A stretch of DNA of 64,000 nt. Origin: an uncultured delta proteobacterium (GTDB taxonomy: Bacteria; Myxococcota_A; Polyangia; Polyangiales; Houyiibacteriaceae). The position numbers were made by a program, and so were the translations under genes. Of the stretch, positions 29,992-44,383 are shown in pieces; the first letter of the stretch is position 1, and the number at the start of each line of letters is the position of its first letter. The stretch spans positions 64,001-128,000 of the forward strand of contig CAVOVB010000007.1 of assembly GCA_963699755.1 (NCBI GenBank), given 5' to 3'. The notes below the pieces were generated by a model. That model ran no database searches. It was not told the DNA's origin and worked only from the letters and a program-made list of their open reading frames with translations.

Positions 29992-31131
29992 ATGAGGCCC
30001 GTCTCAACCCTGCTGCTCTCGCTATGTCTGCTGAGCGCAAGCTGCAATGATGAGGGTTGCGGCGCCGGCGGCTGCAGCAGTACGGCAGCACCGGCCGATA
30101 TCCGTCTCCAAGTCGATGACTTCATTTCCGGCCTCGAAAAGCCATGGGACATCGCCTGGCTGCCAAACGGGACGGTTCTGGTGACGGAGCGTCCCGGCCG
30201 TCTCAACCTGTACGTGGACGGCATCGACGCGGCGCCCTTCGTCATTGCACCAAAGGACGTGGTTCCCCGCGGCGAGGGCGGCATGATGGGCCTCGAAGTC
30301 GACCCGAGCTTCGACGACAACGGCTACGTATACGTCTGCGCCACATCGGACGCTGGCGGCAGCAACGACGTTCGACTGATCCGATTCACCTTGCGCACGC
30401 CAGACGGCCGCGCGGTGCTCGCGCGCGAGGATATCGTGGTCGGTATGCCGTACAGCACGGGCCGACACAGCGGTTGCCGGCCGCGCTTTGGGCCGAACGG
30501 TTTCTTGTGGGTCGGTACAGGTGACGCGGCGGTCGGTACCAGCCCGCAAGACGAGAGCTCTCTCGGCGGTAAGGTGCTGCGAATCGATCGCAACGGCATG
30601 GCGGCTACGGAAAACGCGAACGGATCTCTGTGGTACTCCAAAGGACATCGCAACGTTCAGGGCCTCGCATTCCGCTCCGACGGCGTCGGCATCTCCACCG
30701 AGCACGGTCCTAGTGTCGATGATGAGCTCAATTCACTCGTAGCGGGCAACTTCGGCTGGGACCCGGTCCCCGGCTACAACGAATCGGTTCCGATGACCGA
30801 CCTCGGGAAGTTCCCTGACGCGGTGCCGGCTGTCTGGTCGAGCGGCTCGCCCACGCTCGCGCTTGCGGGCGCGACCTTCCTCGAGGGAAGCGCATGGGGC
30901 GAATGGGATGGGGTGCTCGCCGTGGCCACTTTGAAGGCCAGGCATCTGCACATCTACTTCGTCGACCCCAAAGGCCGAGTGACGGGCGAAGAGCGCACCA
31001 TCGGCGACCAGGGTCGGCTTCGCACACCCCGGCAAGGCCCCGATGGCCTTCTCTACATCACGAATGACGGCGAAAGCGGTCGCGGCAAAGTTCTGCGCGT
31101 CACCCCGATCCCCGTCTCGCCAGCGAGCTAG
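29992..31131 (+). CDS. PQQ-dependent glucose/sorbosone dehydrogenase family lipoprotein
   Basis: GLEKPWDIAW, VTERPGRL, GEGGMMGL, FGPNG, GHRNVQGL, EHGP, NFGW. Confidence 0.92.
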   Translation: MRPVSTLLLSLCLLSASCNDEGCGAGGCSSTAAPADIRLQVDDFISGLEKPWDIAWLPNGTVLVTERPGRLNLYVDGIDAAPFVIAPKDVVPRGEGGMMGLEVDPSFDDNGYVYVCATSDAGGSNDVRLIRFTLRTPDGRAVLAREDIVVGMPYSTGRHSGCRPRFGPNGFLWVGTGDAAVGTSPQDESSLGGKVLRIDRNGMAATENANGSLWYSKGHRNVQGLAFRSDGVGISTEHGPSVDDELNSLVAGNFGWDPVPGYNESVPMTDLGKFPDAVPAVWSSGSPTLALAGATFLEGSAWGEWDGVLAVATLKARHLHIYFVDPKGRVTGEERTIGDQGRLRTPRQGPDGLLYITNDGESGRGKVLRVTPIPVSPAS

Positions 31132-31142
31132 GCGCTCAGCCG

Positions 31143-32036
31143 ATGAGTGACCCGTATTACGCAATCGTCAACAGAGTCGCGGGTGGCGGACGATGCCGGA
31201 AAGCCTTCCCGGACTCGCTCGAGGCGTTGATGCGTCGCGGGCTGGAGCTGGACGTCGCGTTTACCGAAAGACCCATACACGCCACAGAGCTGGCGCGGCG
31301 CGCGGCGAACCATGGCCGCAGGCGGTTCCTATCGGTAGGGGGTGACGGGACCGCGGCCGAAATCGTCAACGGACTCATCGCAGCCGGCGCAGCGCACGAA
31401 TGCGAGCTTGCCATGCTTCCGCTCGGCACAGGAAACTCCTTCCTGCGCGATTTCGGAATCACGGACGCGAACCTGGCAGCCGAGGCCATCGCTAGAGGAG
31501 AGAGTCAGCCGCTGGACGTGCTCCGCCTGACCCACGAGGACGGCGTCATTCACTTCATCAACACGATGGGGACTGGCTTCGTCGCTCGTGCCGGAGAGCT
31601 CACCAACGCACGTTTCAAGTTCCTGGGCGCCGCTGGGTACATCGCTGCGGTTCTGGTTTGCGTCGTGCGGCTTGAGTACGAAGAGAACACGCTCCGCTAT
31701 GCGGGCACTACGGACGAGGCGCGCACGGTGTTGACCTCCTTCTCGAACAGCCAATACACCGGTGGTTCGATGCGCATGGCCCCCGATGCCCAGGTCGCCG
31801 ACGGCCTGCTCGACCTCGTCCGGGCGGGCCCGCTCCGAAGGGCTGCGTTGATCGCGGCGTTCGCCCGCATCTTTTCGGGCACGCACACCGATCTCGATGA
31901 GGTATGGACGCGGCAGGTCGATCGGGTCGAGTTCGTGAACCCGTCATTTCAAGCGGTTCTCATCGATGGAGATCTTCATCACCTCACACCACTTTCGATC
32001 GACGTGCTTCCTTCGGCGATCAGCCTCGTCGTATGA
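31143..32036 (+). CDS. Diacylglycerol-kinase-family lipid kinase
   Basis: IVNRVAGGG, GGDGT, LPLGTGNSF, YTGG, DGLLD, IDGD. Confidence 0.92.
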   Translation: MSDPYYAIVNRVAGGGRCRKAFPDSLEALMRRGLELDVAFTERPIHATELARRAANHGRRRFLSVGGDGTAAEIVNGLIAAGAAHECELAMLPLGTGNSFLRDFGITDANLAAEAIARGESQPLDVLRLTHEDGVIHFINTMGTGFVARAGELTNARFKFLGAAGYIAAVLVCVVRLEYEENTLRYAGTTDEARTVLTSFSNSQYTGGSMRMAPDAQVADGLLDLVRAGPLRRAALIAAFARIFSGTHTDLDEVWTRQVDRVEFVNPSFQAVLIDGDLHHLTPLSIDVLPSAISLVV

Positions 32037-32779
32037 CCGAGACCACGACAATCTGGGATCGGATCGTGAGCCTCGTCATCTGGATCATCGCCGGAGGCTT
32101 CCTAGTCGTCGCCCTCTCGTTCTTGACGATCCTCTACCAGTTCGTCCGGCCTGATCGCGTTCAGTTCCTGGAACGTTTGTACTGCAGGGTCCAACTCGCG
32201 CTGACTTTCAACCGGCAGCGACACCAGGTACACCCCGACGTCGACCCCGGCACTCAGTACATCTTCATTCAGAACCACAGCAGTCATCTCGATCATGTCG
32301 CCATGTACAACGCGACGCCACACTTCAAGCAGGGCATCGAGCTCGAAAGCCATTTCGACTATCCTTTCTACGGCTGGTTCATGAAGGCCCGAGGCACCAT
32401 TGCCGTGCCAAAAGACCGCGCTGGCGCACTCGACGCGCTCGGCAAGGCCGTTCGTGCCGAAGTCGATGTCGGACACTCGATCCTCGGCTTTCCCGAGGGC
32501 CACCGAACCAGGACCGGTCACGTGGGCCCCTTCTACGACGGCTTGTTTCGCATCGCGATCGAGCTCGGCATTCCCATCGTTCCAGTTGCGGTGACCGGGC
32601 TTTTCGAGGTGCTCCACAAGGGCTCACTCGTCATCCGTCCTGGAAACGAGATCTCGGTGTACGTCGAAGAACCGATTGCCACCGAAGCACTCACCGAAGT
32701 CGACATCGCAAGCCTGCGCGACCGCGCGCGGAGCGCGATCGCGACTCGTGTGGACGCGCATTTGGCGGCCAGAAGCTAG
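32033..32779 (+). CDS. Lysophospholipid acyltransferase (PlsC family)
   Basis: NHSSHLD, FPEGHR, PIVPV; ATGA overlap with the kinase. Confidence 0.92.
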   Translation: MTETTTIWDRIVSLVIWIIAGGFLVVALSFLTILYQFVRPDRVQFLERLYCRVQLALTFNRQRHQVHPDVDPGTQYIFIQNHSSHLDHVAMYNATPHFKQGIELESHFDYPFYGWFMKARGTIAVPKDRAGALDALGKAVRAEVDVGHSILGFPEGHRTRTGHVGPFYDGLFRIAIELGIPIVPVAVTGLFEVLHKGSLVIRPGNEISVYVEEPIATEALTEVDIASLRDRARSAIATRVDAHLAARS

Positions 32780-32789
32780 GCCAGCCGCG

Positions 32790-33791
32790 TTATTCTGCGG
32801 CCGCCGCTTCGACGGCCTGAAGCAGGCTCTTCGGAAAAACGCGACCCGTCATGCGATCTCGTACCTTCTTGGCAGCGGCATCCCACTCCGCCTTGTACTT
32901 GCTCGTATCGGTTGCCACGATCCCCTTCTTGAGGACGACGTCATAGGCCTTCTGGTCATCGCGGCGAATCGTCTTGTTGAGCAGCACTTCGACGCGCTCG
33001 GAAGAACGTAGGAGCGTTTCCTTGAGATCGGCCGGAAGCGCATCGACCTTGTCCTTGCGCATCACCATGCCGCCGGCGATGATCGCGGAGTTGTGCGCGG
33101 TCATATAATTCACTCGAGTATACCATTGAAGGGCAACTGCCGTGAGCGCCGAAGAGGTGACGACGTCCACCATCTTGGTTTGAAGCCCTGGGTACACTTC
33201 ATTGACGCCGAGCCGAACCCCATTGGCTCCTATCACGTCGTAGAACTCGATGAAGACCAAGTCGTCTTTCCACATCCAAGGTCGCATCGACTTGATATCG
33301 GAGGGCTTCTCGATCGCCTTCTGCGAAAAGAGCCGGGTCTTGCCCGCATCTCCCCAGGCCAGCATCGTGAAGCCTTCATCCTCGAACAGCTTTTCGAATT
33401 CGCCGGCCATTTTTAGCCGAACACGATCGAGCTTTTCGTACGTGTCGAGAAAGTTGGGCAAGACCAATATCACCATCGGCCGGACCAGCATGCTCATGCC
33501 GGTCATCGTAACGACGCCTCCATCGAGCTGACCCACGCGCATCTTTCGAACGAAGTCGCGCTCGTCGCCTTGAGCGCCGCCGGGGTAGAACCGCAGCTTC
33601 AGGCGGCCCTCGGTCTCGCTTTCCAGCGTCTTTTTCCAGGCGTTGAGGACCTTCATCCAGGACGAGCCTGCCGGCGCAAGAGAGGCGATTCGGAACGTGA
33701 CGGCCTCCTCGGCTCGGCTGCTCGGAACGGTGCCAGGGAGCCCCAAGACAACGATGACCAAGAGCAATACAAATGGGAAATATCGATTCAC
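32790..33791 (-). CDS. TRAP transporter substrate-binding protein (DctP/TatP-like)
   Basis: GTG start, signal peptide ending SRA-E, IASLAPAGSSW, GDERDFVRKMRVGQLDG. Confidence 0.9.
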   Translation of the reverse strand: MNRYFPFVLLLVIVVLGLPGTVPSSRAEEAVTFRIASLAPAGSSWMKVLNAWKKTLESETEGRLKLRFYPGGAQGDERDFVRKMRVGQLDGGVVTMTGMSMLVRPMVILVLPNFLDTYEKLDRVRLKMAGEFEKLFEDEGFTMLAWGDAGKTRLFSQKAIEKPSDIKSMRPWMWKDDLVFIEFYDVIGANGVRLGVNEVYPGLQTKMVDVVTSSALTAVALQWYTRVNYMTAHNSAIIAGGMVMRKDKVDALPADLKETLLRSSERVEVLLNKTIRRDDQKAYDVVLKKGIVATDTSKYKAEWDAAAKKVRDRMTGRVFPKSLLQAVEAAAAE

Positions 33792-33882
33792 GAAACGGTC
33801 TCTTACCGGAGCGGGCCCCCCTCGTCCAGCCCCGCGGAACCCGACCCTGCCGACCCCACCCGTGTTGCGCGGCCCAAACTTT

Positions 33883-33899
33883 AGCGGAATACTTCCGCT
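33883..33899. promoter_or_regulatory. Inverted repeat, candidate operator
   Basis: AGCGGAA-TAC-TTCCGCT in the divergent gap between the DctP gene and the leader ORF. Confidence 0.4.
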
Positions 33900-33921
33900 T
33901 CTAAGGGGTTGGGTAGCGGCG

Positions 33922-34302
33922 ATGGATGCCGAGTCACCATGGGGATGGAGCGTTGCGAGGTATCGGCCGGGCCGGTGCACCGCGCAGTTGGCGCTATTCC
34001 TGATCGCCATATCGGGGTTTTTTCCGCGAGTCGAGGCTGATTCGTCCGGGGAGAGGAGCAGCGCCGAAAGGGCCTCGGCCAATCCCCTTCAGGCTCTTGG
34101 CGGGCCCGCCGCGGAGCGCCCTACCGTGTTCGCCGACGAGCTCATCGATCCGCTCGAGGACGATCACCGTGGGGCGGCGTGCCCCTCTGCGCCATCTTTC
34201 CAGAGCTCGGAATCCTCAACGGCTTTCGACTCTAGTGCGGCCTCTCGCGACGGCCGACCAGTAGCGTCCGCGAATCCGGCTCGCGGTCCCCCTTCCGCCT
34301 GA
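33922..34302 (+). CDS. Putative leader (ribosome-arrest) peptide: signal-like N-terminus and C-terminal RGPP
   Basis: 126 aa; RYRPGR then QLALFLIAISGFF then VEA; low-complexity linker; ends PARGPPSA-stop; 89 nt before SulP. Start codon uncertain. Confidence 0.6.
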   Translation: MDAESPWGWSVARYRPGRCTAQLALFLIAISGFFPRVEADSSGERSSAERASANPLQALGGPAAERPTVFADELIDPLEDDHRGAACPSAPSFQSSESSTAFDSSAASRDGRPVASANPARGPPSA

Positions 34303-34391
34303 CGAAGCCCTCGTGGGCTTCGTCTCCGGCGTGTGCGATTGCCCCCGATCTTCGGGGCAATCTTGTGCTCTCAAGGCGAAGGCGGATTGTC
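34291..34391 (+). promoter_or_regulatory. Putative RBS-sequestering mRNA structure
   Basis: TCCGCCT (34294-34300) pairs with AGGCGGA (34380-34386); hairpins GACGAAGCCC/GGGCTTCGTC (34301-34324) and GATTGCCCC/GGGGCAATC (34337-34362) lie between. Confidence 0.6.
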
Positions 34392-35993
34392 ATGTCGAAT
34401 GTAGTGTCAAAGGACGGGCGACGAAGCTCGTTCCCAGTTGCCGATCTCAAGGCAGGGTTCTTGGTTTTCCTCATCGCCCTTCCCCTCTGCCTGGGGATCG
34501 CGATGGCCAGTGGTTTCCCTCCCATATCAGGCGTTCTGACCGCGATCATCGGCGGGGTGGTCGTTACGTTCCTGGGTAGCGCACGACTGACCATCAAGGG
34601 TCCGGCGGCCGGGCTCATCGTGATCGCGCTAGGCGCCGTGCAGGAGCTCGGCGGGGGAGATCCCATGCTCGGCTACCGTCGAGCCCTGGCGGTGGGGACT
34701 GTCGCGGCCGCGGTGCAGATCGCGCTTGCCGTCTTTGGAGCCGCCTCGATCGGAGTAGCGATGTCGCCTTCGGTCGTCCACGGGATGCTTGCAGCCATCG
34801 GCGTGATCATCATCTCGAAGCAAGCGCACACTTTGATGGGCGTGGCACCCGAGGCGAAGGAGCCGCTGGAGTTGCTCGCCGAAATCCCGCGCAGCATCGC
34901 GCATGCCAACCCGGAGATATTGATGCTTGGCGGCCTCTCCCTCCTCATACTCTTTGGCTGGCCGCTGATTCGGGCACGATGGGCAAAGGTCATACCCGCT
35001 CCGGTGGTCGTGCTCGCAATGGCGGTGCCACTGAGCCTGTGGCTTGGCCTAGACCACTCCCACGCATATCGATTCCTGTCGCACCAATTCGACGTTGGAC
35101 CCGAATTCCTCGTGCAGCTACCAGGCTCACTCCTCGATGCGATGGTCTTCCCCGATTTCTCGATGGTGTTCACTGCGGCGTCCCTGAAGTACGTAGTGAT
35201 GTTTGCCCTAGTCGGGACGATCGAATCGACCTTGAGCGTTCTCGCGGTTGACTCGATGGATCCCGAGAAGCGCCCGTCGAATCTCAATCGCGATCTACTG
35301 GCGCTTTCTCTCGGTAATCTCGGTTCGTCCCTGCTCGGCGGCCTTCCGATGATCTCCGAGATCGTGCGAAGCAAAGCGAACATCGACGCTGGTGCGAAGT
35401 CGCATTGGGCGAATTTCTTTCACGGTGCCTTCCTCTTGGTCTTCGTCAGCCTCGCTCCAGGCCTGCTGCATGAAATCCCGCTCGCCGCGCTTGCTGCAAT
35501 GCTCGTCTACACGGGTGCGAGACTCGCATCACCTCGGGAGCTCTGGCACGTCAGGCAAATCGGTCTAGATCAGCTCGCGCTCTTCGTCACGACGCTCCTC
35601 GTCACACTCGCTACCGACCTCCTGGTTGGCGTCGCTGCCGGACTAGTTCTGAAGGTCGTCTTGCATCGTGTTCGCGGGGCGACGTTCGCACAAATCTTTC
35701 GTGCCAGGGTCGAGAAGAGGCAGGAAGGGTCCGAGCTACACCTGACCTTGCGTGGTGCTGCCGCGTTCACGAGCCTCATTTCGGTCCGAAGGGCTCTCGC
35801 CGATCTCGATCCTGCGTGTAACAAGGTCGTGATCGACGTGAGCGACGCCGTGATCGTGGATCATACGTTCTTGAGTCGCCTCGACGGTCTGGCGAATGAG
35901 TGGCCCAACGTCGAGCTCGAGGTGATCGGCATCGAGGAGCTCACGCCCCATTCGCCCCATCCCCATGCAACGCGTCGAAGGACCGAAGCATGA
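34392..35993 (+). CDS. SulP/SLC26 anion transporter, probably bicarbonate
   Basis: DLKAGFLVFLIALPLCLGIAMASG, IKGPAAGL, GGLPMISEIVRS, STAS-like tail with VDHT. Confidence 0.92.
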   Translation: MSNVVSKDGRRSSFPVADLKAGFLVFLIALPLCLGIAMASGFPPISGVLTAIIGGVVVTFLGSARLTIKGPAAGLIVIALGAVQELGGGDPMLGYRRALAVGTVAAAVQIALAVFGAASIGVAMSPSVVHGMLAAIGVIIISKQAHTLMGVAPEAKEPLELLAEIPRSIAHANPEILMLGGLSLLILFGWPLIRARWAKVIPAPVVVLAMAVPLSLWLGLDHSHAYRFLSHQFDVGPEFLVQLPGSLLDAMVFPDFSMVFTAASLKYVVMFALVGTIESTLSVLAVDSMDPEKRPSNLNRDLLALSLGNLGSSLLGGLPMISEIVRSKANIDAGAKSHWANFFHGAFLLVFVSLAPGLLHEIPLAALAAMLVYTGARLASPRELWHVRQIGLDQLALFVTTLLVTLATDLLVGVAAGLVLKVVLHRVRGATFAQIFRARVEKRQEGSELHLTLRGAAAFTSLISVRRALADLDPACNKVVIDVSDAVIVDHTFLSRLDGLANEWPNVELEVIGIEELTPHSPHPHATRRRTEA

Positions 35994-38980
35994 CGTCCGT
36001 CGGCGCCCAGATTCCCAGAATTGCGGGATCATCGAGCTCGGAATCCGATGCGGACGGGACGATTGACGAGATCCTCGAGCATGCGGCGGAGCTGCTTCCT
36101 CAGCAATCCCCACTGCACATGTTCGTTCACCACAACACCTTGCACGCCTTCGAGCACCTGCCCTTCGAGCAAGCCGTCCTCGCAGCCGCCGCGCGCTTTG
36201 GCACCGAGCCCTACCAGTCCGAGCAGGCGTTCGCCCAGTCTCTGAAGTCCGCGAGAATCCGTCCGTCGGACATCGCTGCGGTGATTCCCGAATCGGCCGA
36301 AGACGAGGGCGTGCCTGTGTTCGCCGGGGGTCCGACGCGACACGAGCTGCAGGCTCTTCGTCTACGCAACCTTTTCGAGATCCCGAAGGGCCCTGCGCTC
36401 CATTGGATGCTCGAGGAGACAGGGACGTTATTTCGCTTTCATCCTCGAGTTTCGGAAGCGGCGCGGGCCGCGATCCTTCAATCTGCTGAGCGACTCTCGG
36501 CGGACCGGAGCCCACTCACGCCAGAGGCGCGTGAGGAGCAGGCGCTCGAGCTGCTCTGGAGCGAGCTATTGGCGGTCGCGCCATCGTGCCCACGCACGCG
36601 TATCGGCATGAGGCGCCGCGACCAGATCCTCGATGCTTGCGGTGCCGACACGGATCACCTGGTGCATCCGCTTCTGATTCGTGTCTGCGCAGCGTTCGTC
36701 GATCAGGGGATCGCATACTGGGAGATGCCGGGGCGGGACAAGGGCTTGCTCGAAGTCTTTCGAACCCTGTATGGAATCGGCTCCGGACCTTCCGATCGCT
36801 GGCTGAAAGGGCTGTCCAAGGAGCTGCGACGCCAACACAACGATGGATGGAACGCGGAACGCACGGTGCGCTGGGCGTTGGAGGAGCTGGATGTTCCGCG
36901 CGATCGATGGGCTAGCTACATCGAGGAGACGCTTCTATCGCTTCCAGGTTGGGCGGGCATGATTCGGCAGCTGGAAGTCCGTCCGGACACGGCGCCGGTC
37001 AACCCTCCGCGCGCCCGACTGATCGACTACCTTGCCCTGCAGCTCACTCTCGATGCGCAGGCCGCGCGCTTCGTCGTTCGGACGCAGGCTGGCGGTCCAG
37101 ACGCATTCGCGGAGATGATGTCGCGCCACAGTGACGCCGACCAATCGAGAATGCTGGATCTCGAGCTCGTCTATGAGGCTTTCATCACGGCACAACTGGG
37201 AGGACTCGGGCCAGCGGAGATTACGGGGCCAGGACCAGCGAGGCGCTGGCTGGAAGAGATCCGTTCCTTCGACGCGAACGAACGGCGCAGACTCTTGCAT
37301 CTGGCTTACGAAAGGAGACATCGCATCGGCGTGCTCGACGGGATCGTGGGTCACTGCCAGTTTGAACGAGCGCAAGCAGACGAACCGAGTTTTCAGGCGG
37401 TATTCTGCATCGATGACCGCGAAGAGTCGCTTCGCAGGCACCTCGAAGAGATTCGACCAGACGTGGAGACTTTCGGATACGCAGGCTTCTTTGGCATTGC
37501 GATGGCATATCAGGGGATCGAGGACATTCGGCCGAGGCCGCTATGCCCGGTCGCCGTTCGACCGAGCCACTATGTCACCGAACGCGCCCTCGATGAGGAC
37601 GAAGCCGCCGTGTTCGCTGAGAAGCGCCGCAGACGAGGACAGCTAACCCACTCGATCGGCCTTGGAAGCAAGATGCTGACCCGCGGCGGGATCCTGTCTG
37701 CCTTGTTCGGCTTCCTGGCGGTCATCCCGCTGCTCGGAAGAAGCTTGTTTCCCCGCGCTACGGAGCGTCTCGCGCATTGGTTCTTGCACCGGACGGCGCC
37801 GACTCCTCCGACCCGCCTGTGTCTGGAACGCTCTGCGGCTGAGCGACGGGACGGACTAGAGCCGGGCTACACGCTAGACGAGATGGCCGGCATCGTGTCC
37901 GGCGCGCTGACAACGATGGGGATGGCTGGGAACTTGTCGTCGCTGGTGCTCATCGTCGGGCACGGGTCTTCGAGCCTCAACAACCCGCACGAGGCGGCTC
38001 ACGATTGCGGTGCGACCGGTGGGGGGCGCGGGGGACCCAACGCGCGCGCCTTTTCTCAGATGGCCAATGACCCGCGGGTTCGAGAGAGGCTTCGGACCCT
38101 CGGCTTGATCATCCCCGAGTCGAGCTGGTTCGTAGGCGCGTACCACAACACCTGCGACGACTCGATGACCTATTACGACGAGGACCTGTTGCCGGCGGAG
38201 TCTCTCGAGGCGCTCGAAGACGCAAAGCAAGCCTTTGCAGAGGCCTGCCTCCTGGACGCGCAGGAACGGTGCCGCCGCTTCGAGTCAGCGCCGTTGACTC
38301 TCGATCCCAAGGCAGCCCTCGCACACGCGGAGGCACATGCTTACGATCTGGCGCAGCCTAGGCCCGAGTACGGTCACGCAACGAACGCGGTTTGCATCGT
38401 TGGCCGCAGAAAACGCACACGCGGCCTGTTCTTGGACCGGCGCGCTTTTCTCGTGTCGTACGATCCGGAGAGCGATCCTACAGGAACGGTTCTGGCCCAG
38501 CTTCTTCGATCGGTCGGCCCGGTCGGCGCTGGAATCAACCTGGAATACTATTTCAGCTTCGTCGATCCCACGGGCTACGGCTGCGGTACCAAGCTCCCTC
38601 ACAACATCGTCGGGCTCATCGGGGTGATGGACGGGCACGCATCGGACTTGAGGACCGGCCTGCCCTGGCAGATGGTGGAGATTCACGAGCCCGTTCGCCT
38701 CTTGACCATCGTCGAGGCAGAAACCGCGACTTTGGCGCGCATCTTGGAGCAAGAACCGGCGCTTGCGAGCTTGGTGAACAATGAGTGGATCCAGTTGGTG
38801 GCCTGGGATCCCTCCGGTCATGCGTTCGCCGTCTATCAGAACGGACGATTTCAACCGTACATCCCAGAAAACCCGGCCATCGCCGTGGTCGACCGCTCGC
38901 TCGACTACTACTTCGGCAGACGGGGGCATCTTAGCCCTGCGCACATCAGGGCCGGATTGCCCGGATTCGGTGGAGCGTGA
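35990..38980 (+). CDS. dabA: DUF2309 inorganic carbon transporter catalytic subunit
   Basis: FVHHNTLHAF, LPGWAG, FCIDDREES, GHGS..NNP..DCGA, QPRPEYGH, FLDRRAFLVSYD, INLEYYFS, TKLPHN, HEPVRL. Confidence 0.93.
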   Translation: MTSVGAQIPRIAGSSSSESDADGTIDEILEHAAELLPQQSPLHMFVHHNTLHAFEHLPFEQAVLAAAARFGTEPYQSEQAFAQSLKSARIRPSDIAAVIPESAEDEGVPVFAGGPTRHELQALRLRNLFEIPKGPALHWMLEETGTLFRFHPRVSEAARAAILQSAERLSADRSPLTPEAREEQALELLWSELLAVAPSCPRTRIGMRRRDQILDACGADTDHLVHPLLIRVCAAFVDQGIAYWEMPGRDKGLLEVFRTLYGIGSGPSDRWLKGLSKELRRQHNDGWNAERTVRWALEELDVPRDRWASYIEETLLSLPGWAGMIRQLEVRPDTAPVNPPRARLIDYLALQLTLDAQAARFVVRTQAGGPDAFAEMMSRHSDADQSRMLDLELVYEAFITAQLGGLGPAEITGPGPARRWLEEIRSFDANERRRLLHLAYERRHRIGVLDGIVGHCQFERAQADEPSFQAVFCIDDREESLRRHLEEIRPDVETFGYAGFFGIAMAYQGIEDIRPRPLCPVAVRPSHYVTERALDEDEAAVFAEKRRRRGQLTHSIGLGSKMLTRGGILSALFGFLAVIPLLGRSLFPRATERLAHWFLHRTAPTPPTRLCLERSAAERRDGLEPGYTLDEMAGIVSGALTTMGMAGNLSSLVLIVGHGSSSLNNPHEAAHDCGATGGGRGGPNARAFSQMANDPRVRERLRTLGLIIPESSWFVGAYHNTCDDSMTYYDEDLLPAESLEALEDAKQAFAEACLLDAQERCRRFESAPLTLDPKAALAHAEAHAYDLAQPRPEYGHATNAVCIVGRRKRTRGLFLDRRAFLVSYDPESDPTGTVLAQLLRSVGPVGAGINLEYYFSFVDPTGYGCGTKLPHNIVGLIGVMDGHASDLRTGLPWQMVEIHEPVRLLTIVEAETATLARILEQEPALASLVNNEWIQLVAWDPSGHAFAVYQNGRFQPYIPENPAIAVVDRSLDYYFGRRGHLSPAHIRAGLPGFGGA

Positions 38981-40344
38981 TGGAAACCATCATCCATGGC
39001 TTGGTGATCGGCATCGTGGGATTCCCCGTGCTGGCCGTGTTCGTCCTCGGTCTGCGTGCCTGGCTCTATCGACCCTGGAGCGAGCGCGCGACCGTCGCGA
39101 TCGTAAGCTCGGCGTTCAGCGCTTCACTGACGGCATCCGCGATCACCACCGGCTGGCTTCTCGTGCGAGACGTCTCCGAAGCCCGCGTTCCCTTGGGCAG
39201 CTGGTTCTCCGCCGAGCACTATTCGTTCGATTGGTACCTCATAGCGGATCATCTGTCGATTCCCTTTGCGATGTTCTCGGCCGCGCTACTAGGTCTTGTC
39301 GCCGCGTTCTCGAGAAGGTACTTGCACCGCGAGCCGGGCTTCTCACGATTCTACCTCCTACTGACCATCTTCGGTGCCGCAGTAGCGTTCGTCGTGCTGG
39401 CAGGAAGCCTGGATTTGGCCTTCATCGGATGGGAGCTAGTTGGGCTGACGTCCGCTCTGCTGATCGCGTTCTTTCACGAGAGGCGAGCGCCAGTAGAGCA
39501 TGGCCTCCGTGCCTTCGTGACCTATCGACTCTGTGACGTCGGTTTGCTCGCCGCCGGGGTCGCACTTCACTTCATGGTCGGCACGTCGGATGTCGTGCCT
39601 TCCTCGACCGGTCCTTGGGCGGGCTTCGTCGTTCCGAACACCGTGCTCGAGGCGACCGTCGTCGGCTTGCTCCTTCTCTGGGCATCCATGGGCAAAGCGG
39701 CCCAAGCGCCGCTGTCCGGATGGCTGCCGCGCGCGATGGAAGGTCCCACCCCTTCGAGCGCCGTGTTCTACGGGGCGCTTTCCATCCATCTAGGACCCTA
39801 CCTTCTGCTTCGTGCCGCGTCGATCCTCGAGTTCTCGGGAATCGCAGCCGGTGCGGTGATCGCGGTGGGAGGGTCTACCGCCCTGCACGCGACTTTCGTA
39901 GGCCGTACGCAAACCGACATCAAGAGCGCCCTCGCGTACGCCTCGATGACCCAAGTGGGGCTGATCTATGTCGAGATCGGGCTCGGTTTCTACCACCTTG
40001 CGGTCGCCCACATCGTCGGACACGCCGCCATTCGAACGCTTCAAATCCTGAGGTCCCCAAGCTTGCTCCACGACTACCATCATCTCGAGCAAGCGATGGG
40101 AACGCAGCTTCCGCGAACCGGCGGACATCTCGAACGCCTCGTGCCTGGCGCTCTTCAGCCCTGGCTCTATCGCGTCGCCCTCGAGCGCGGTGGCTTCGAC
40201 GCCTTCCTCAGGGACCAGGTCGTTGCGCGGGCGCTGGGCGCCGTCTCGTGGTTGGACCGGGTGGACCGGGCCTGGGTAGACTATCTGACGAAACCAACGC
40301 GACCGAAGGAGCCGCGCCAGCAGCCGGACGAGGTCCGACCATGA
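38980..40344 (+). CDS. dabB: NuoL/MrpA-like proton-conducting subunit (DabB)
   Basis: RYLHREPG, GWELVG, GKAAQAPLSGWLPRAMEGPTPSSA, TDIKSALAYAS, HIVGHA. Confidence 0.9.
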   Translation: METIIHGLVIGIVGFPVLAVFVLGLRAWLYRPWSERATVAIVSSAFSASLTASAITTGWLLVRDVSEARVPLGSWFSAEHYSFDWYLIADHLSIPFAMFSAALLGLVAAFSRRYLHREPGFSRFYLLLTIFGAAVAFVVLAGSLDLAFIGWELVGLTSALLIAFFHERRAPVEHGLRAFVTYRLCDVGLLAAGVALHFMVGTSDVVPSSTGPWAGFVVPNTVLEATVVGLLLLWASMGKAAQAPLSGWLPRAMEGPTPSSAVFYGALSIHLGPYLLLRAASILEFSGIAAGAVIAVGGSTALHATFVGRTQTDIKSALAYASMTQVGLIYVEIGLGFYHLAVAHIVGHAAIRTLQILRSPSLLHDYHHLEQAMGTQLPRTGGHLERLVPGALQPWLYRVALERGGFDAFLRDQVVARALGAVSWLDRVDRAWVDYLTKPTRPKEPRQQPDEVRP

Positions 40345-41726
40345 CGATCGTGTTTACGGCTCTGCAGGTTCTCCTACTGGTTCCGATGGCCTGGTTCGTC
40401 GCGCGTTCGAGCACGCCGCGGACGGCTCGCCACCGAGCCAGCTACGCCATGGGTCTGGCGGGCATTCTTGCGCTGACCCAAATTGGATGGCGCGCTCTGG
40501 GCATCTCGATGCCAGCGCCGAACGCAGACTGGATTTCCATGGAAGACCCGCATTCCTGGGCTCCCGCGTTCTCTCTGATCACCTGCCTGATCGGTTACAC
40601 CGCGGTCGCCCTCAGCCCGATCAGCGGAACGCGTCCCAAGACGTTTGCGAGGATCTTGCTTCTCATTGCGGTCGCGTTGGTCTTCTTGGTGATTCGAAAC
40701 CCGATCGGGCTTGCCATCCTCTGGGGCGCTTCGGCGCTGCTCGTATGGCTCGAGCTGCGAGAGATGCGTGCGACTCAGACGACCGCAAGGCTCTTCGCCA
40801 TCTACCACATCCCGAGCGTGGTGGCGCTGGGCATTGGCGCCGTACTTCTCAGTCGAGGCCAGTCCGCTGTGGGGCTGGTGTTCCTGCTCATAGGCATCGG
40901 AATCCGCGAAGCGGTGATCCCGCTCCAGAGCTGGTTCCCGCCCTTCGTGCAATACGCACCCATGGGCCTGGTGGTTGCGTTCTTTGCTCCCCAGCTCGGT
41001 GTCTATGCGCACCTGGAGTTGCTCAAAGGCGAGCTCCCGCAGCAGCTAGCTCATGGTGTGGCAGCTCTTGGCGCGGTCACCGCAGTAGTCGCCGCGGGGC
41101 TGGGCATTGCGCAAACGGACGCGAGGCGTGCCCTCGGATTCCTGATCATCAGCCAGACGGGCCTCGTGGCCTTCGGCCTCGATGCGAGGTCTCCAGTTGC
41201 CCAGATCGGTGCATTGCTGACCTGGCAAGTGATCGGCCTGGCGACCGCTGGGTTCGCCATGACCCTGGCGTCACTCGAAGCCCGGCGGGGGAGCCTTTCG
41301 ATGCGGGTGCCAGCGGGCAGCTTCACCCGGACACCTCGCATGGCTGTTTCTTTTCTCTTCATGGGTTTCGCGAGCGTCGGTCTCCCGCTCACGCTCGGGT
41401 TCGTAGCCGAAGATCTGCTGGTACAGGGATCGGTCGACGAGTTCCCCTTGCTTGCCTTCGCGTTGATCGTGGCCACTGCGCTCAACGGCGTTTCGGTCAT
41501 GCGGGCCTTCTTCACGCTGTTCAGCGGTTCCGCGAAGCACATCGGAGAGCGCGATCTGACCAGGCGAGAAGCAGCGGTACTGACGGTATTGATGGCCACG
41601 CTGCTGATCACGGGGCTCTTTCCCGGTGGGACCGTACGCCGCCTCGAGGGAATCACCGAACCCCGACAAGCGCCCGCTACCCTCGTGGAGACTTCCGGCG
41701 TCTTGCGCGCCTTGCAACGGCCTTGA
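40341..41726 (+). CDS. Second Mrp/NuoM-like proton-conducting membrane subunit
   Basis: Many TM helices; IREAVIPLQSW, DARRALG, ASVGLPLTLGFVAEDLL; ATGA overlap with dabB. Confidence 0.85.
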   Translation: MTIVFTALQVLLLVPMAWFVARSSTPRTARHRASYAMGLAGILALTQIGWRALGISMPAPNADWISMEDPHSWAPAFSLITCLIGYTAVALSPISGTRPKTFARILLLIAVALVFLVIRNPIGLAILWGASALLVWLELREMRATQTTARLFAIYHIPSVVALGIGAVLLSRGQSAVGLVFLLIGIGIREAVIPLQSWFPPFVQYAPMGLVVAFFAPQLGVYAHLELLKGELPQQLAHGVAALGAVTAVVAAGLGIAQTDARRALGFLIISQTGLVAFGLDARSPVAQIGALLTWQVIGLATAGFAMTLASLEARRGSLSMRVPAGSFTRTPRMAVSFLFMGFASVGLPLTLGFVAEDLLVQGSVDEFPLLAFALIVATALNGVSVMRAFFTLFSGSAKHIGERDLTRREAAVLTVLMATLLITGLFPGGTVRRLEGITEPRQAPATLVETSGVLRALQRP

Positions 41727-42594
41727 ACACGCGCTGAAACATGGCGGCGTCTGCCGTCACGGGCTCGCGCTGGTCGTTCTTGTCACCCGACTCTGGATAC
41801 AGTCGGTAGGCGGCCTGGAGGATGCGATCGACGGCGTTCGGCGCAAGACCGTAGGCGAATTCGAAGAGGTTTCCGACCGGAGTGGCTACCCGCTTCGGCT
41901 GGTGAATGATGCCGTGCACCACGAGGTCGGCCGCCTCTTCGGCACTCCTCATGGGGAACGAGTCATAGATGGTCGTCGATTCCATCATTGGCGTCTTGAC
42001 GAGAGGCATGTAGATCGTCGTCACCTTGACCCCATCCTGCAGCGCTTCCACGGCCAGCACCCGGCTGAAGGCGTCGAGCGCGGCCTTGCTGGCGATGTAG
42101 GCCCCGTAACGCGGAACGTTCACTTGAACACCGATGGTCGACACGTTGAGGATCTGCCCGTTTCGCTGCGCGCGCATACCCGGAACGAAACCCATGATCA
42201 GGCGTACCGCGCCAAGGAAATTGAGCGCGAGCGTCCGCTCGAAGTCGTGCACGCGCTCGTACGACTTCTCTACACTTCGGCGAATCGAAATGCCTGCGTT
42301 GTTGACCAAAATGTCGATCTGCCCGTGCTCTGCGAGGATCGTGCCGATGAGGCGCTCGGTATCTTCAGCATTCGAAAGGTCGGCCGGATAGACGAATGCC
42401 GAGCCTCCTCGAGCCTCGATGCTCTGCTTGATCTCAGCAAGCTTGTCGGCGGAGCGGGCAATCAGCAGGACCTTGGCACCTGCCTCTCCCAATCGCATGG
42501 CGAGCGCTTCCCCAATCCCGCTCGAAGCCCCAGTGATGACCACAGAGCGCCCGGATACCCGTTCGCGCAACGCCTTCTCGTCGGTGTCAGTCAC
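41677..42594 (-). CDS. SDR, fatty acyl-CoA reductase (Acr1-like)
   Basis: ITGASSGIG, LVNNAGISIRR, HDFERT, YIASK, YMPLVKTPM. Confidence 0.85.
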   Translation of the reverse strand: MTDTDEKALRERVSGRSVVITGASSGIGEALAMRLGEAGAKVLLIARSADKLAEIKQSIEARGGSAFVYPADLSNAEDTERLIGTILAEHGQIDILVNNAGISIRRSVEKSYERVHDFERTLALNFLGAVRLIMGFVPGMRAQRNGQILNVSTIGVQVNVPRYGAYIASKAALDAFSRVLAVEALQDGVKVTTIYMPLVKTPMMESTTIYDSFPMRSAEEAADLVVHGIIHQPKRVATPVGNLFEFAYGLAPNAVDRILQAAYRLYPESGDKNDQREPVTADAAMFQRVFKAVARRARRRKSPRG

Positions 42595-42667
42595 CGCCTA
42601 ATGGTAGCCGAACCGACCCGACCCACGACGGAAAACATCGGCAAATCGTCGAGCTCGCGCTCGGCTC

Positions 42668-44383
42668 TCAGGGCAAGCGTCGCTGCTCGTCGGGGAGGTC
42701 GAGCGCAAGGGTGCCACCTGGGTTTAGCACGTTCCGCGGATCGAAGTGCCGCTTGAGGGCGCGGAAGACCTCGAGCTCATTGGTTCCGATCTGGCCCTCG
42801 AGCCAGGGAGCGGTCATCTTCCCGATACCGTGGTGGTGGCTCATTGTCGCGCCGGACGCCTGGACGGCGTCGAGGATGCCGCGGTGGAACTCCAGAAACT
42901 CCTGATGCCCCATCTTCGCGATGAAGATGAAATACAAATTCGCACCCTGCGGGTAGCAGTGAGACATGTGCGTCATGCAGACGGTCTGCGGGCGGCTCTT
43001 CACATAGGCGCGCACCTGCTCATGCACTTTCGGAAGCTCTTCCCAGTTGGTCGCGCACTCGAGCGTATCGATCAGAATGCCATAGTCCTGCAAGTCCTCC
43101 CGCATGTAAGGATCGGCAAATCGTCCGTGCTCCCACTTCTTGGTGATGAAGCCGGTCGTGTACATCCCGCCTTGCGCTTTGCAAACCTGGCGGAGGCGGC
43201 GCTTGACCATCGCCGTGTAGGCACGATCGCCGTCGACGGTGCCTAGCATCAGGCATCGCTCTCCCTTCTTGAAGCCTCGTAGGCTCACGATGGTGTCGAT
43301 GGGCGTGCCTTCCACACCGTACAGCTTGAACGCAACGTCGGTCTCCTCTGGATCAGACAAGCGAAAAACCGAAGGAAAGCCGAACTCGCCCTGCATGATC
43401 TCGCGCACGGCCGTCGTCCCACTGTTCCAGTTCGGAAATATGAAGCTGAATCGCCGCGTATTCTCCGGCTGATAGCGAAAGATCTTCAAGGTCACCGAGA
43501 CCAGGATTCCGTAGGCGCCTTCACTGCCGATCATGATTTGGTCGAGGTTCGGTCCGGTGGCGTAGGCAGGGACATCGACGGTTTTGATCGTGCCTGCCGG
43601 CGTGATGTACTCCTGGCTGAGAACCAGGTCCTCAGCCTTGCCGTAGTAAGTCGAATTCTGCCCCGCTCCACGCGTGACCACCCAGCCGCCGGCCGACGAA
43701 AACTCGAACGACTGCGGAAAATGACCGCAGGTGTACGCGTGTGGCGCGTCGAATCGCTCGCGCGCACAGTTGAGCGCCGCTTCGAGCTCCGGCCCGAGGA
43801 TGCCGGGCTCCACCGTGACCGTTTGGTTGACCGCGTTGAGCGAGAGCACGCGCTTCATGTGAATGCCGAGGTGAATCGAAACTCCACCTTTGACGCACTC
43901 GGTGCCGCGGGTCACGCTCGAGCCCGCGCCGTAGGTGTACAGGGGAATCTCCTGCTCGTGACAGCAGCGAACGATCTTCTCGACGTCGTCGCGGTCGCGA
44001 GGATGGAGGACCAGGTCCGGAAGGTTCTCCACCTTGTGCTCACGAAGGCGGAGCGCGTCGATCATCGTCTTCCCGTAAGATGCGCGGAGCCTCGCATAGA
44101 CATCGTCAGTCACGTTCTCATCGCCAAGCAACTCGCGGAACAAGCTCACCTGCTCGGAGCTGAGCGCAATCGAAGCGTCTGCCGTGACCTCTTCGAGGCC
44201 GAGGTTCTGCGGCTTCTCGAAGTGATCGTCGCCGAGGTCAAACGTCTCCTTCATCAAGGCGTAGAGGCGCTGATTCGGGTGCTTGTAAGCCTCGGGGGCT
44301 CCCCACTTGAACGCCGAACGATAGGAACGCTTCGGGAGGGCTCCCTCGAACCACTGCGGAGTGAAGGACTCTCTATCCGTCAT
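42668..44383 (-). CDS. FAD-linked alkylglycerone-phosphate synthase (AGPS)-like protein
   Basis: GAGSSVT, GHFPQSFEFSSAGGWVVTRGAGQ, GSEG, RLSDPEET, DTLE, SHCY, SHHHGIGK, LNPG. Confidence 0.85.
   Translation of the reverse strand: MTDRESFTPQWFEGALPKRSYRSAFKWGAPEAYKHPNQRLYALMKETFDLGDDHFEKPQNLGLEEVTADASIALSSEQVSLFRELLGDENVTDDVYARLRASYGKTMIDALRLREHKVENLPDLVLHPRDRDDVEKIVRCCHEQEIPLYTYGAGSSVTRGTECVKGGVSIHLGIHMKRVLSLNAVNQTVTVEPGILGPELEAALNCARERFDAPHAYTCGHFPQSFEFSSAGGWVVTRGAGQNSTYYGKAEDLVLSQEYITPAGTIKTVDVPAYATGPNLDQIMIGSEGAYGILVSVTLKIFRYQPENTRRFSFIFPNWNSGTTAVREIMQGEFGFPSVFRLSDPEETDVAFKLYGVEGTPIDTIVSLRGFKKGERCLMLGTVDGDRAYTAMVKRRLRQVCKAQGGMYTTGFITKKWEHGRFADPYMREDLQDYGILIDTLECATNWEELPKVHEQVRAYVKSRPQTVCMTHMSHCYPQGANLYFIFIAKMGHQEFLEFHRGILDAVQASGATMSHHHGIGKMTAPWLEGQIGTNELEVFRALKRHFDPRNVLNPGGTLALDLPDEQRRLP

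Follow-up and report, generated by a model that had tools for sequence, protein, structure and literature searches.

A candidate RGPP arrest leader with an acidic patch upstream of a sulP-dab inorganic-carbon operon in an uncultured delta proteobacterium

The stretch analyzed here (the window) comprises 64,000 nucleotides from an uncultured delta proteobacterium (positions 64,001 to 128,000 of contig CAVOVB010000007.1, GenBank assembly GCA_963699755.1) and contains, just upstream of an operon that opens with sulP and dabA, a short open reading frame (ORF) whose product ends with an RGPP tetrapeptide. We propose that this ORF encodes an arrest leader of the RAPP/RGPP class, controlling the translation of sulP and of the coupled dab genes, and that an acidic patch within the peptide serves as a release element that feels the membrane potential; the probability of this reading as a whole is placed at about 0.5. 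Its components do not carry the same weight. The ORF is very probably a functional arrest leader of the operon, an output through pairing with the sulP Shine-Dalgarno (SD) sequence, i.e., an anti-SD, is likely in this genus, and the chances that the acidic patch acts as an electrical force element are even. The elements on which the proposal is built are as follows:

33922..34302, plus strand: leader ORF of 126 amino acids, ATG at 33922, ending RGPPSA-stop; frame, start and end kept at 16 of 16 genus loci
33958..34038, plus strand: putative export signal, read from the sequence, with a basic n-region (residues 13-18) and an h-region (residues 23-34)
34135..34164, plus strand: acidic patch DELIDPLEDD, residues 72-81, 52 to 43 residues before the A-site proline
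34282..34293, plus strand: predicted RGPP arrest motif, residues 121-124 (RAPP, RSPP or RPPP in homologs); arrest is known for the motif class (PMC12992588)
34291..34300, plus strand: anti-SD in the last Pro-Ser-Ala-stop codons, pairing with the sulP SD; duplex of -23.7 versus -17.4 kcal/mol for synonymous recodings, 3% of which are as good
34301..34324, plus strand: hairpin 1, 10 bp; paired in 100% of alignment cells, with 7 of its 10 pairs invariant and double changes at one pair
34337..34362, plus strand: hairpin 2, 9 bp; 93% of alignment cells paired, 4 of 6 consensus pairs changed on both sides
34380..34386, plus strand: sulP Shine-Dalgarno AGGCGGA, appearing as AAGG(C/T)GG in most genus loci

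The leader is conserved upstream of related sulP genes. It was scored when an ORF located within 800 nt upstream of sulP contained R[AGSDP]PP at most 14 codons from its stop and, at least 55 residues before the motif, an 11-residue stretch with a mean hydropathy of at least 2.0; three leaders with values of 1.85-1.91 were added by hand. The 129 distinct loci counted have a SulP identity of at least 45% and at least 450 nt of upstream DNA; they share kinship, and the conservation counts are descriptive. A first search had shown that 14 out of 14 close sulP loci of the same genus possess an ORF ending in R[AG]PP-x-x-stop, with the motif end at 96-111 nt from the sulP start. In the complete count, the leader was present at all 16 genus loci (a number that takes in the window and a probable contaminant copy) and at 27 of the 113 other loci, which split into 22 of 67 with dabA as the next gene, 5 of 40 with no dabA next and 0 of 6 where the next gene is unknown. 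On a SulP tree of 128 rows, leaders were found in 34 of the 36 members of one clade (SH-aLRT 97) and in eight more rows elsewhere; this distribution requires at least 10 gains or losses (quick search, midpoint root). From its named neighbors in the tree, the organism would itself be a member of Myxococcota. The conserved signal plus R(A/G)PP ORF anticipated by the first-pass annotation was indeed recovered upstream of sulP-DUF2309 operons. RGPP and RAPP, and also RSPP, swap while the rest of the leader diverges past alignment, and the carriers include records labelled Myxococcota, Planctomycetota and Acidobacteria, some of these labels of metagenome-assembled genomes looking unreliable.

The occurrence of the leader before sulP exceeds chance, because ORFs that combine a hydrophobic stretch with R[AGS]PP near the stop are so rare in the background. 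When this rule was applied to 1.71 Mb of loci (L001-L249, both strands), only two ORFs not associated with SulP were returned, one of them junk and the other a His-rich leader placed before a probable TonB-dependent receptor; a similar rule yielded five matches in the 5.35 Mb of the organism's own genome, three of them credible, namely two sulP leaders and the His-rich one. Among 80 dabA loci from the order, sulP was found directly upstream in 20, and 11 of those carried the leader. The 30 beta-carbonic anhydrase loci examined from the order had no leader of their own, the single match being a sulP leader downstream of the anhydrase. The leader was likewise absent from 30 dabA-first loci, 30 dabB-first loci, 30 secD loci of the phylum and 12 distant SulP loci (L019-L030), indicating that it belongs to operons that open with this SulP subfamily and mostly continue with dabA. 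The initial notion of a leader of DAB operons therefore stands insofar as the ORF heads sulP-dab operons, but what it tracks is the sulP-first arrangement and not DAB; the dabA-first and dabB-first loci rule it out as a general DAB feature, and the distant SulP loci as a general SulP feature.

Other arrangements were observed around these genes. At the leaderless sulP-dabA loci L015, L034, L046, L050, L126, L129, L155 and L165, the upstream gene encodes, as judged by eye, a single-pass protein with a His-rich outer domain, accompanied, where visible, by an ECF-sigma-like gene; a sigma/anti-sigma pair could possibly replace the leader there. At L014/L287 (G041:C27:131645-134443), a beta-carbonic anhydrase gene is found just 5' of an RSPP leader that is followed by sulP-dabA. 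At L039, L047, L048, L064 and L068, the gene immediately 5' of dabA encodes a SulP of this group in the opposite orientation, and no leader was scored by the rule. In the Bacteroidota records L161, L166, L174, L178, L182, L184, L189 and L200, SulP is placed 3' of dabA-like and dabB-like genes, and any leader would fall outside the flank examined. Finally, small ORFs with a signal and an acidic patch precede sulP at L143, L199, L204, L339, L360 and L372 and terminate differently (YVRHRALLR, NGxxAPL, RAGP, SPP, RPP); these C-termini are candidates for unrelated arrest motifs of the same design.

The leader peptide of the window agreed with its first description at every coordinate: RYRPGR at residues 13-18, LALFLIAISGFF at residues 23-34, VEA at residues 37-39, and RGPP followed by Ser-Ala-TGA, with the stop at 34300-34302 and 89 nt between it and the sulP ATG. 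VEA is a possible cleavage site, and both a cleaved and an anchored product would be allowed. The h-region reaches a mean hydropathy of 2.58 over 11 residues and, in the genus leaders, the K/R fraction immediately N-terminal to the hydrophobic stretch is 0.36; the signal peptide call is made on charge and hydrophobicity only, and the basic-then-hydrophobic segment, present in all leaders, was required by the search rule and is hence non-independent. No Pfam family at E <= 0.1 and no NCBIfam model matched the leader. Its closest neighbors in an Atlas comparison were unnamed clusters (0.96), a DUF2946-named cluster reaching only 0.91 with 72 of 256 features shared, and an Rfam scan gave three chance matches, far under the gathering scores, and no riboswitch. 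The ratio of nonsynonymous to synonymous change (pN/pS) was 0.47-0.63 in seven of eight pairs and 0.99 in the remaining one. It is thus a fast-diverging peptide, in which the genus alignment keeps A-R-G/A-P-P, an Asp at -48 (15 of 15 aligned leaders), a Glu at -45 (13 of 15) and few other positions, counting back from the A-site proline.

These two acidic residues belong to the patch, and the middle of the peptide, regarded at first as a disordered linker, is therefore not featureless. The patch was defined on a discovery set of 27 distinct leaders from outside the genus, mostly unalignable, in which the D/E frequency was 0.07-0.14 at -5 to -39, 0.21 at -40 to -44, 0.44 at -45 to -49 and 0.36 at -50 to -54, falling further out to about 0.2 and then 0.1. 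When the leader of the window was added, the most acidic run of eight residues started between -40 and -55 in 19 of 28 peptides, compared with 5.0 in shuffled sequences (maximum 13 in 2000). This slot had been picked post hoc and was fixed in advance for a hold-out of 101 new loci, 15 of which were short of upstream DNA. The 86 loci scored (hydropathy >= 1.8) provided 15 leaders, 13 of them new and three of these genus-like; with the signal excluded from the shuffle, 10 of the 13 had the patch in the slot, against 2.8 expected by chance (maximum 7 in 1000), and D/E was again highest at -45 to -49 (0.42).

Other leaders of the class fill this region in a different manner. Ten His-type receptor leaders of the same phylum, drawn as a control from 30 loci of a probable TonB-dependent receptor, had on average 1.1 D/E residues in the slot, compared with 5.1, and their acids lay further out. 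In the source table of PMC12992588, inspected by eye, CxxC appears in 23 of 25 cydA rows and in most of 29 DUF1559 rows, and an acidic run in the slot is not a regular feature of the 28 secD and 29 antiporter rows, although a few have one. The His-rich RAPP/RGPP leader itself, whose HGxGSxAH-like motif precedes the stall site by about 45-52 residues, was found at L218 (G000:C1, minus strand, stop 329032), and the same type occurs at L250-L256, L259, L263 and L276 upstream of the probable TonB-dependent receptor; it is likely a metal-sensing leader.

The position of the acidic patch coincides with a distance at which an arrested chain is known to feel the membrane potential. Placed ahead of the SecM arrest peptide, five aspartates (Asp5) produced a potential-dependent force peak at L+n of about 50, and Gln5 or Lys5 did not (10.1101/310698); Asp5 at L+n = 50 spans about -46 to -50, that is, the natural D/E peak. 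Basic and neutral runs also gave some release, and the potential is thus not the sole force (PMC6028853). Secretion force, proton-motive force (PMF), pH and CO2 had all been considered as inputs at first; the patch would favor membrane potential or pH over CO2 itself.

At the RNA level, the complementarity and the two perfect hairpins noticed at first sight were all present: TCCGCCT (34294-34300), whose last T is the first base of the leader stop, is the exact reverse complement of AGGCGGA, located 5 nt before the sulP ATG at 34392. The predicted folding energy of the 141-nt region is -65 kcal/mol (z = -4.38), a value reached by 0 of 200 shuffles, and RNAalifold returned the same three-way junction for 15 genus sequences. 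On the genus alignment, 96% of the cells were paired in this fold, versus 93.5% when shuffled (1/500) and 38-57% when slid. The gap of 87-102 nt found in the genus is nearly fully paired, and in the free fold the SD lies within a helix. CCT serves as the last Pro codon at 15 of 16 genus loci, its genome-wide usage being 12%, and the duplex between the stall footprint and the ribosome-binding site is, in the window, better than 97% of synonymous recodings. The register of the anti-SD shifts between the Pro-Pro-Ser and the Ser-Ala-stop codons. The covarying anti-SD pairing that had been foreseen was found only in part: the helix is kept in the genus (92% of cells paired), with G-U changes only, but no two-sided change was observed, nor any signal outside the genus.

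The effect of a stalled ribosome on this fold was modelled by masking its footprint, which lowered the cost of opening the SD at 14 of the 16 loci modelled (15 genus loci plus L080), whichever of the three folding-window lengths was used. At the middle length, the median cost decreased from 6.7 to 3.5 and that of the window sequence from 9.2 to 4.1 kcal/mol. When the ribosome was slid along the 15 genus loci, the cost was minimal when the P site occupied codons -2 to 0 relative to the stall proline (medians of 4.1-4.6, versus 5.9-7.6 at other positions). The proposal that a stalled ribosome frees the sulP SD is thus backed by the model in this genus but does not extend further, since pairing outside the genus is no better than in recodings; there, stop-to-start gaps reach up to ~530 nt. 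An SD switch would be plausible in this genus, its general validity being excluded. With the ribosome on the stop codon, the 3' arm of hairpin 1 (TTCGTCT, 34319-34325) paired with the SD in 11, 11 and 5 of the 16 loci, depending on the window length; in the model, it may represent a second anti-SD, held in short folding windows only, and this would explain the invariance of hairpin 1. No intrinsic terminator was found in the leader-sulP gap. The 1 terminator-like match, at 33998-34017, is internal to the leader and corresponds to what chance would give (0.7 expected).

These data can be integrated into the following model. The basic-then-hydrophobic N-terminus would take the nascent chain into SecYEG, with its C-terminus outward, and the ribosome would stall once the RGPP prolines occupy its P and A sites, as known for the motif class. 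RGPP arrests in many contexts, no other 4-mer is as strongly avoided in 10 bacterial groups, and the motif alone is insufficient for arrest (PMC12992588). During the stall, the Asp/Glu-rich segment at -43 to -52 would sit in the translocon, where the potential pulls Asp5 hardest. DAB complexes are vectorial carbonic anhydrases driven by the PMF (PMC13144422, PMC13684180). From an acidic segment at a voltage-sensitive distance and a PMF-driven target, we infer that the stall is normally released by the potential. Under a normal potential, the pull would permit termination, the anti-SD would pair with the sulP SD across the two hairpins and the operon would remain low. When the pull is weakened, as might occur through a lower potential, through slower secretion or through protonation of the carboxylates at acid pH, the stalled ribosome is modelled to cover the anti-SD, so that sulP and dab could be translated. 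In a broader and more tentative version, such leaders would be natural voltage gauges, in which an Asp-run plus an arrest peptide makes the synthesis of a proton-driven CO2 pump, together with that of a bicarbonate transporter, depend on the membrane potential or on external pH. Equally tentative is the extension of this design to RGPP, RAPP, RSPP, RAGP and possibly unrelated C-termini, across Myxococcota, records labelled Planctomycetota and other phyla.

A number of observations weigh against this interpretation. Turning on a PMF-consuming pump at low potential follows a logic that is not obvious, and bicarbonate-type SulPs are more frequent at high pH (PMC10880623). Of the other sulP-dabA loci, 45 of 67 have no such leader. 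The patch falls outside the slot in about a third of the leaders (9 of 28 and 3 of 13), among them L125, L163, L150, L153 and L356, together with the related L190 (labelled Acidobacteria), L368 and L378, which are Arg-rich in the slot. The His-type control represents one protein family, and 7 of its 10 members come from this genus. Moreover, CruR has its CxxC and the receptor leaders their His in this slot, which suggests a general sensor slot where a ligand could bind. Regarding the output, the anti-SD helix shows no compensatory pair in the genus alignment, and the anti-SD beats synonymous recodings at the 10% level in no more than 6 of the 16 loci of the genus and 2 of the 27 outside it, the latter count ruling out a universal anti-SD beyond the genus. 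With an 18-nt opening window, the effect of the stall was small (10.3 to 9.5 for the window sequence) and inconsistent, and RNA masking by itself partly cuts the opening cost.

The coincidence of the patch with the sensing slot of other leaders is the basis for an alternative in which the peptide is a ligand leader of the CruR/CutF type, its carboxylates having no special voltage role and binding Zn2+ (for DabA), Ca2+, Mg2+ or Na+, or else being titrated by periplasmic protons or by CO2/bicarbonate, so that binding or folding alters the stall. The patch shares its slot with the CruR CxxC (45 residues before RAPP) and the His motif of the receptor leaders, one Asp is invariant within the genus, DabA bears a Zn site, and in one homolog the leader closely follows a beta-carbonic anhydrase gene. 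Nevertheless, outside the genus only charge density is common, with three scattered acids at one extreme and runs of at least eight at the other, the slot contains little His or Cys (mean 0.5), a CxxC is present in 1 of 43 leaders, and the genus alignment shows no conserved Lys for carbamylation, all of which makes a ligand leader unlikely. The layout of a signal plus a C-terminal RAPP-like motif is shared with generic secretion monitors such as SecM, ApdA and ApdP. If the leader were one of them, the pull of SecA/SecDF would free the stall, the operon would answer to membrane stress or to the load on the translocon, and the acids would form a fortuitous spacer excluded from the ribosome tunnel. 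The four downstream products are all membrane or membrane-bound, and acid-poor tunnel segments could stem from ribosome electrostatics, given the repulsion reported in 10.1101/310698. This possibility is rather unlikely: Sec/YidC parts are not among the downstream genes, D/E peaks at -45 to -49 and then drops (0.44, about 0.2, 0.1) with no step at the tunnel exit, and the 28 secD leader rows, by eye, lack a regular acidic run in the slot.

A further alternative concerns the output and is compatible with any input: the stall might act on transcription, through Rho-dependent termination or a hairpin relay, and not on SD access. The long gaps and the lack of an anti-SD excess outside the genus would fit, CruR acts through Rho (PMC9426467), and the sequence of hairpin 1 is conserved beyond what pairing requires. 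For the locus of the window this is improbable, since the genus gap is almost wholly paired, the free fold places the SD within a helix and there is no intrinsic terminator; it is more likely for the long-gap loci. As for a chance ORF in GC-rich DNA, or a plain small exported protein with no regulatory role, it could be argued that the leader has no family match, that purifying selection is weak, that one RNA run provided almost no leader cover, and that R[AG]PP occurs near a stop 392 times in the six frames of the genome. Once a hydrophobic N-terminus is required, this number falls to 5 per genome and 2 per 1.71 Mb, and 43 + 13 distinct leaders with fixed internal spacing precede this sulP, so either of these readings is very improbable.

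Comparison with known systems indicates that, in form, the leader belongs to the RAPP/RGPP arrest-leader class, to which ApdA, ApdP and the Streptomyces lividans upstream ORFs (uORFs) were assigned (Fujiwara et al. 2025, PMC12992588). It shares with them a length under 300 residues, a localization signal (predicted here), RGPP/RAPP near the C-terminus and a co-oriented downstream gene. The RAPP source list of that work contains at least 15 rows with a 'SulP family' downstream gene, 13 of which have the motif near the C-terminus, and the contig of row 5004 is our locus L190, where dabA follows sulP. SulP falls outside the top 30 RAPP classes, the main text mentions neither SulP nor carbon, and the sections consulted describe neither a DAB link nor an acidic patch, the inputs discussed being Sec/YidC activity, metals and disulfides. 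The statement that no such leader had been described for DAB operons consequently holds for the texts searched, with the qualification that RAPP uORFs before SulP are present in these source data. Our literature search, thin on subscription papers, found no arrest leader for SulP or DAB and none sensing CO2 or PMF, nor any natural regulator built as an Asp-run plus an arrest peptide.

CruR of Bordetella pertussis (DUF2946; PMC9426467) is, like the leader, an exported uORF with RAPP that heads an uptake operon, and its arrest was demonstrated in PMC12992588. It differs in its sensing CxxC, located with conserved spacing 45 residues before RAPP, where the leader has acids, and in its use of Rho, with a signal peptide dispensable for release, whereas the genus fold points to SD occlusion. 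In the leaders studied here, a CxxC within 70 residues of the motif was found in 1 of 43, there next to the motif, and none in the window peptide. Membership of DUF2946 (CruR/CutF) was rejected, as there is no Pfam DUF2946 match, no CxxC in the slot and no metal homeostasis gene downstream. The CutF leader of Rhodobacter capsulatus (10.1101/2025.02.05.636593) is co-translationally exported, as predicted here, and when translation stalls at its Pro-rich C-terminal motif, a stem that occludes the following SD is opened, as modelled here; CutF relies on PPP (EF-P sensitive), a Cys copper site and a ligand that causes the stall, in contrast with RGPP and an acidic patch.

One homolog of the leader, at L339, ends in RAGP. 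In MifM, the acidic run is located at the stall site, not 45-50 residues away. This run is needed for stalling (PMC10987492). In SecM, VemP and MifM, force-released arrest is coupled to SD exposure (PMC10987492), as proposed here, but these peptides control the translocation machinery that pulls them and the target of the leader is an inorganic-carbon module. A Sec/YidC monitor, as defined by its target, was discarded: the downstream gene is not secA, secDF or yidC, and 0 of 30 secD loci have the leader. The closest precedent for the acidic element is the Asp5-SecM force sensor (Ismail et al. 2015, via 10.1101/310698; PMC6028853), in which acids about 46-50 residues from the arrest allow the potential to free the stall; that sensor is a laboratory construct in E. 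coli LepB. What appears to be new is the inorganic-carbon target together with an acidic sensor slot that matches the known voltage-sensitive distance.

The remaining features of the locus are the expression signals of the leader and the genes of the operon:

33865..33893, plus strand: probable sigma70-type promoter, TTGCGC (33865-33870), 17 nt, AATACT (33888-33893)
33905..33913, plus strand: G-rich leader ribosome-binding site; GGGGTT(G/A)(A/G)G recurs 5' of the aligned ATG/GTG in most homologs
34392..35993, plus strand: sulP, SulP-family anion transporter (PF00916, E 3e-52), its presumed substrate, bicarbonate, deduced from context
35990..38980, plus strand: dabA (DUF2309), beta-carbonic-anhydrase-like subunit (PF10070, E 3.4e-244), with an ATGA overlap with sulP
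38977..40344, plus strand: dabB-like, NuoL-type membrane subunit (PF00361 + PF00662; best NCBIfam matches are NuoL models, below cut-off)
40341..41726, plus strand: NuoM-like membrane subunit, DabC-like by position (PF00361, E 1.2e-17; best model TIGR01972, below cut-off)

A TTGC-N17-AATACT pair aligns, by eye, in 14 of 15 genus-group loci, and a consensus promoter scan gave zero sites above threshold in this region. The start and stop codons of the four genes overlap, and the PF10070 gene adjoins a PF00361 gene, which at the gene level is the arrangement that defines DAB/DAC. The SulP scores under the cut-offs of the DauA, sulP and BicA models. The fourth gene encodes a full-length NuoM-like protein, DabC of DAB1 in PMC13684180 being half-size. 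The bench test for such complexes, PMF-dependent CO2 hydration with rescue of carbonic anhydrase-free E. coli, is described in PMC13684180. A divergent gene for a DctP-family solute-binding protein (32790-33791, minus strand) starts ~130 nt from the leader ATG. One metatranscriptome (12% of words, contigs only) covered mostly the sulP of relatives, with almost no cover of the leader. The genome contains a second leader-sulP-dab copy (L219, G000:C1:1885000-1905000), ~80% identical to positions 31000-44000 of the window over 13 kb including flanks; it is almost identical to the copy of another genome in the SulP tree and the genome contamination is 9%, so it is probably a contig of a related species, duplication being disfavored. 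A third, shorter dabA (G000:C1:384756-387110) is of the type that follows dabB leaderless in relatives, and its upstream region was examined solely through the genome-wide leader scan.

What exerts the pull on non-Sec RAPP leaders is named as an open question in PMC12992588, and a charged element at a potential-sensitive distance before a PMF-driven carbon pump makes this question testable. If the proposal is true, the leader would constitute a sensor of membrane potential or pH that needs no transcription factor, and it would show how DAB/SulP operons of heterotrophs are regulated, the literature search having found no mechanism for them. It also suggests a rule by which residues 43-52 before RAPP would tell the input: Cys for copper, His for other metals and Asp/Glu for voltage or protons. 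Even in a weaker reading, inorganic-carbon uptake would join the targets of arrest leaders.

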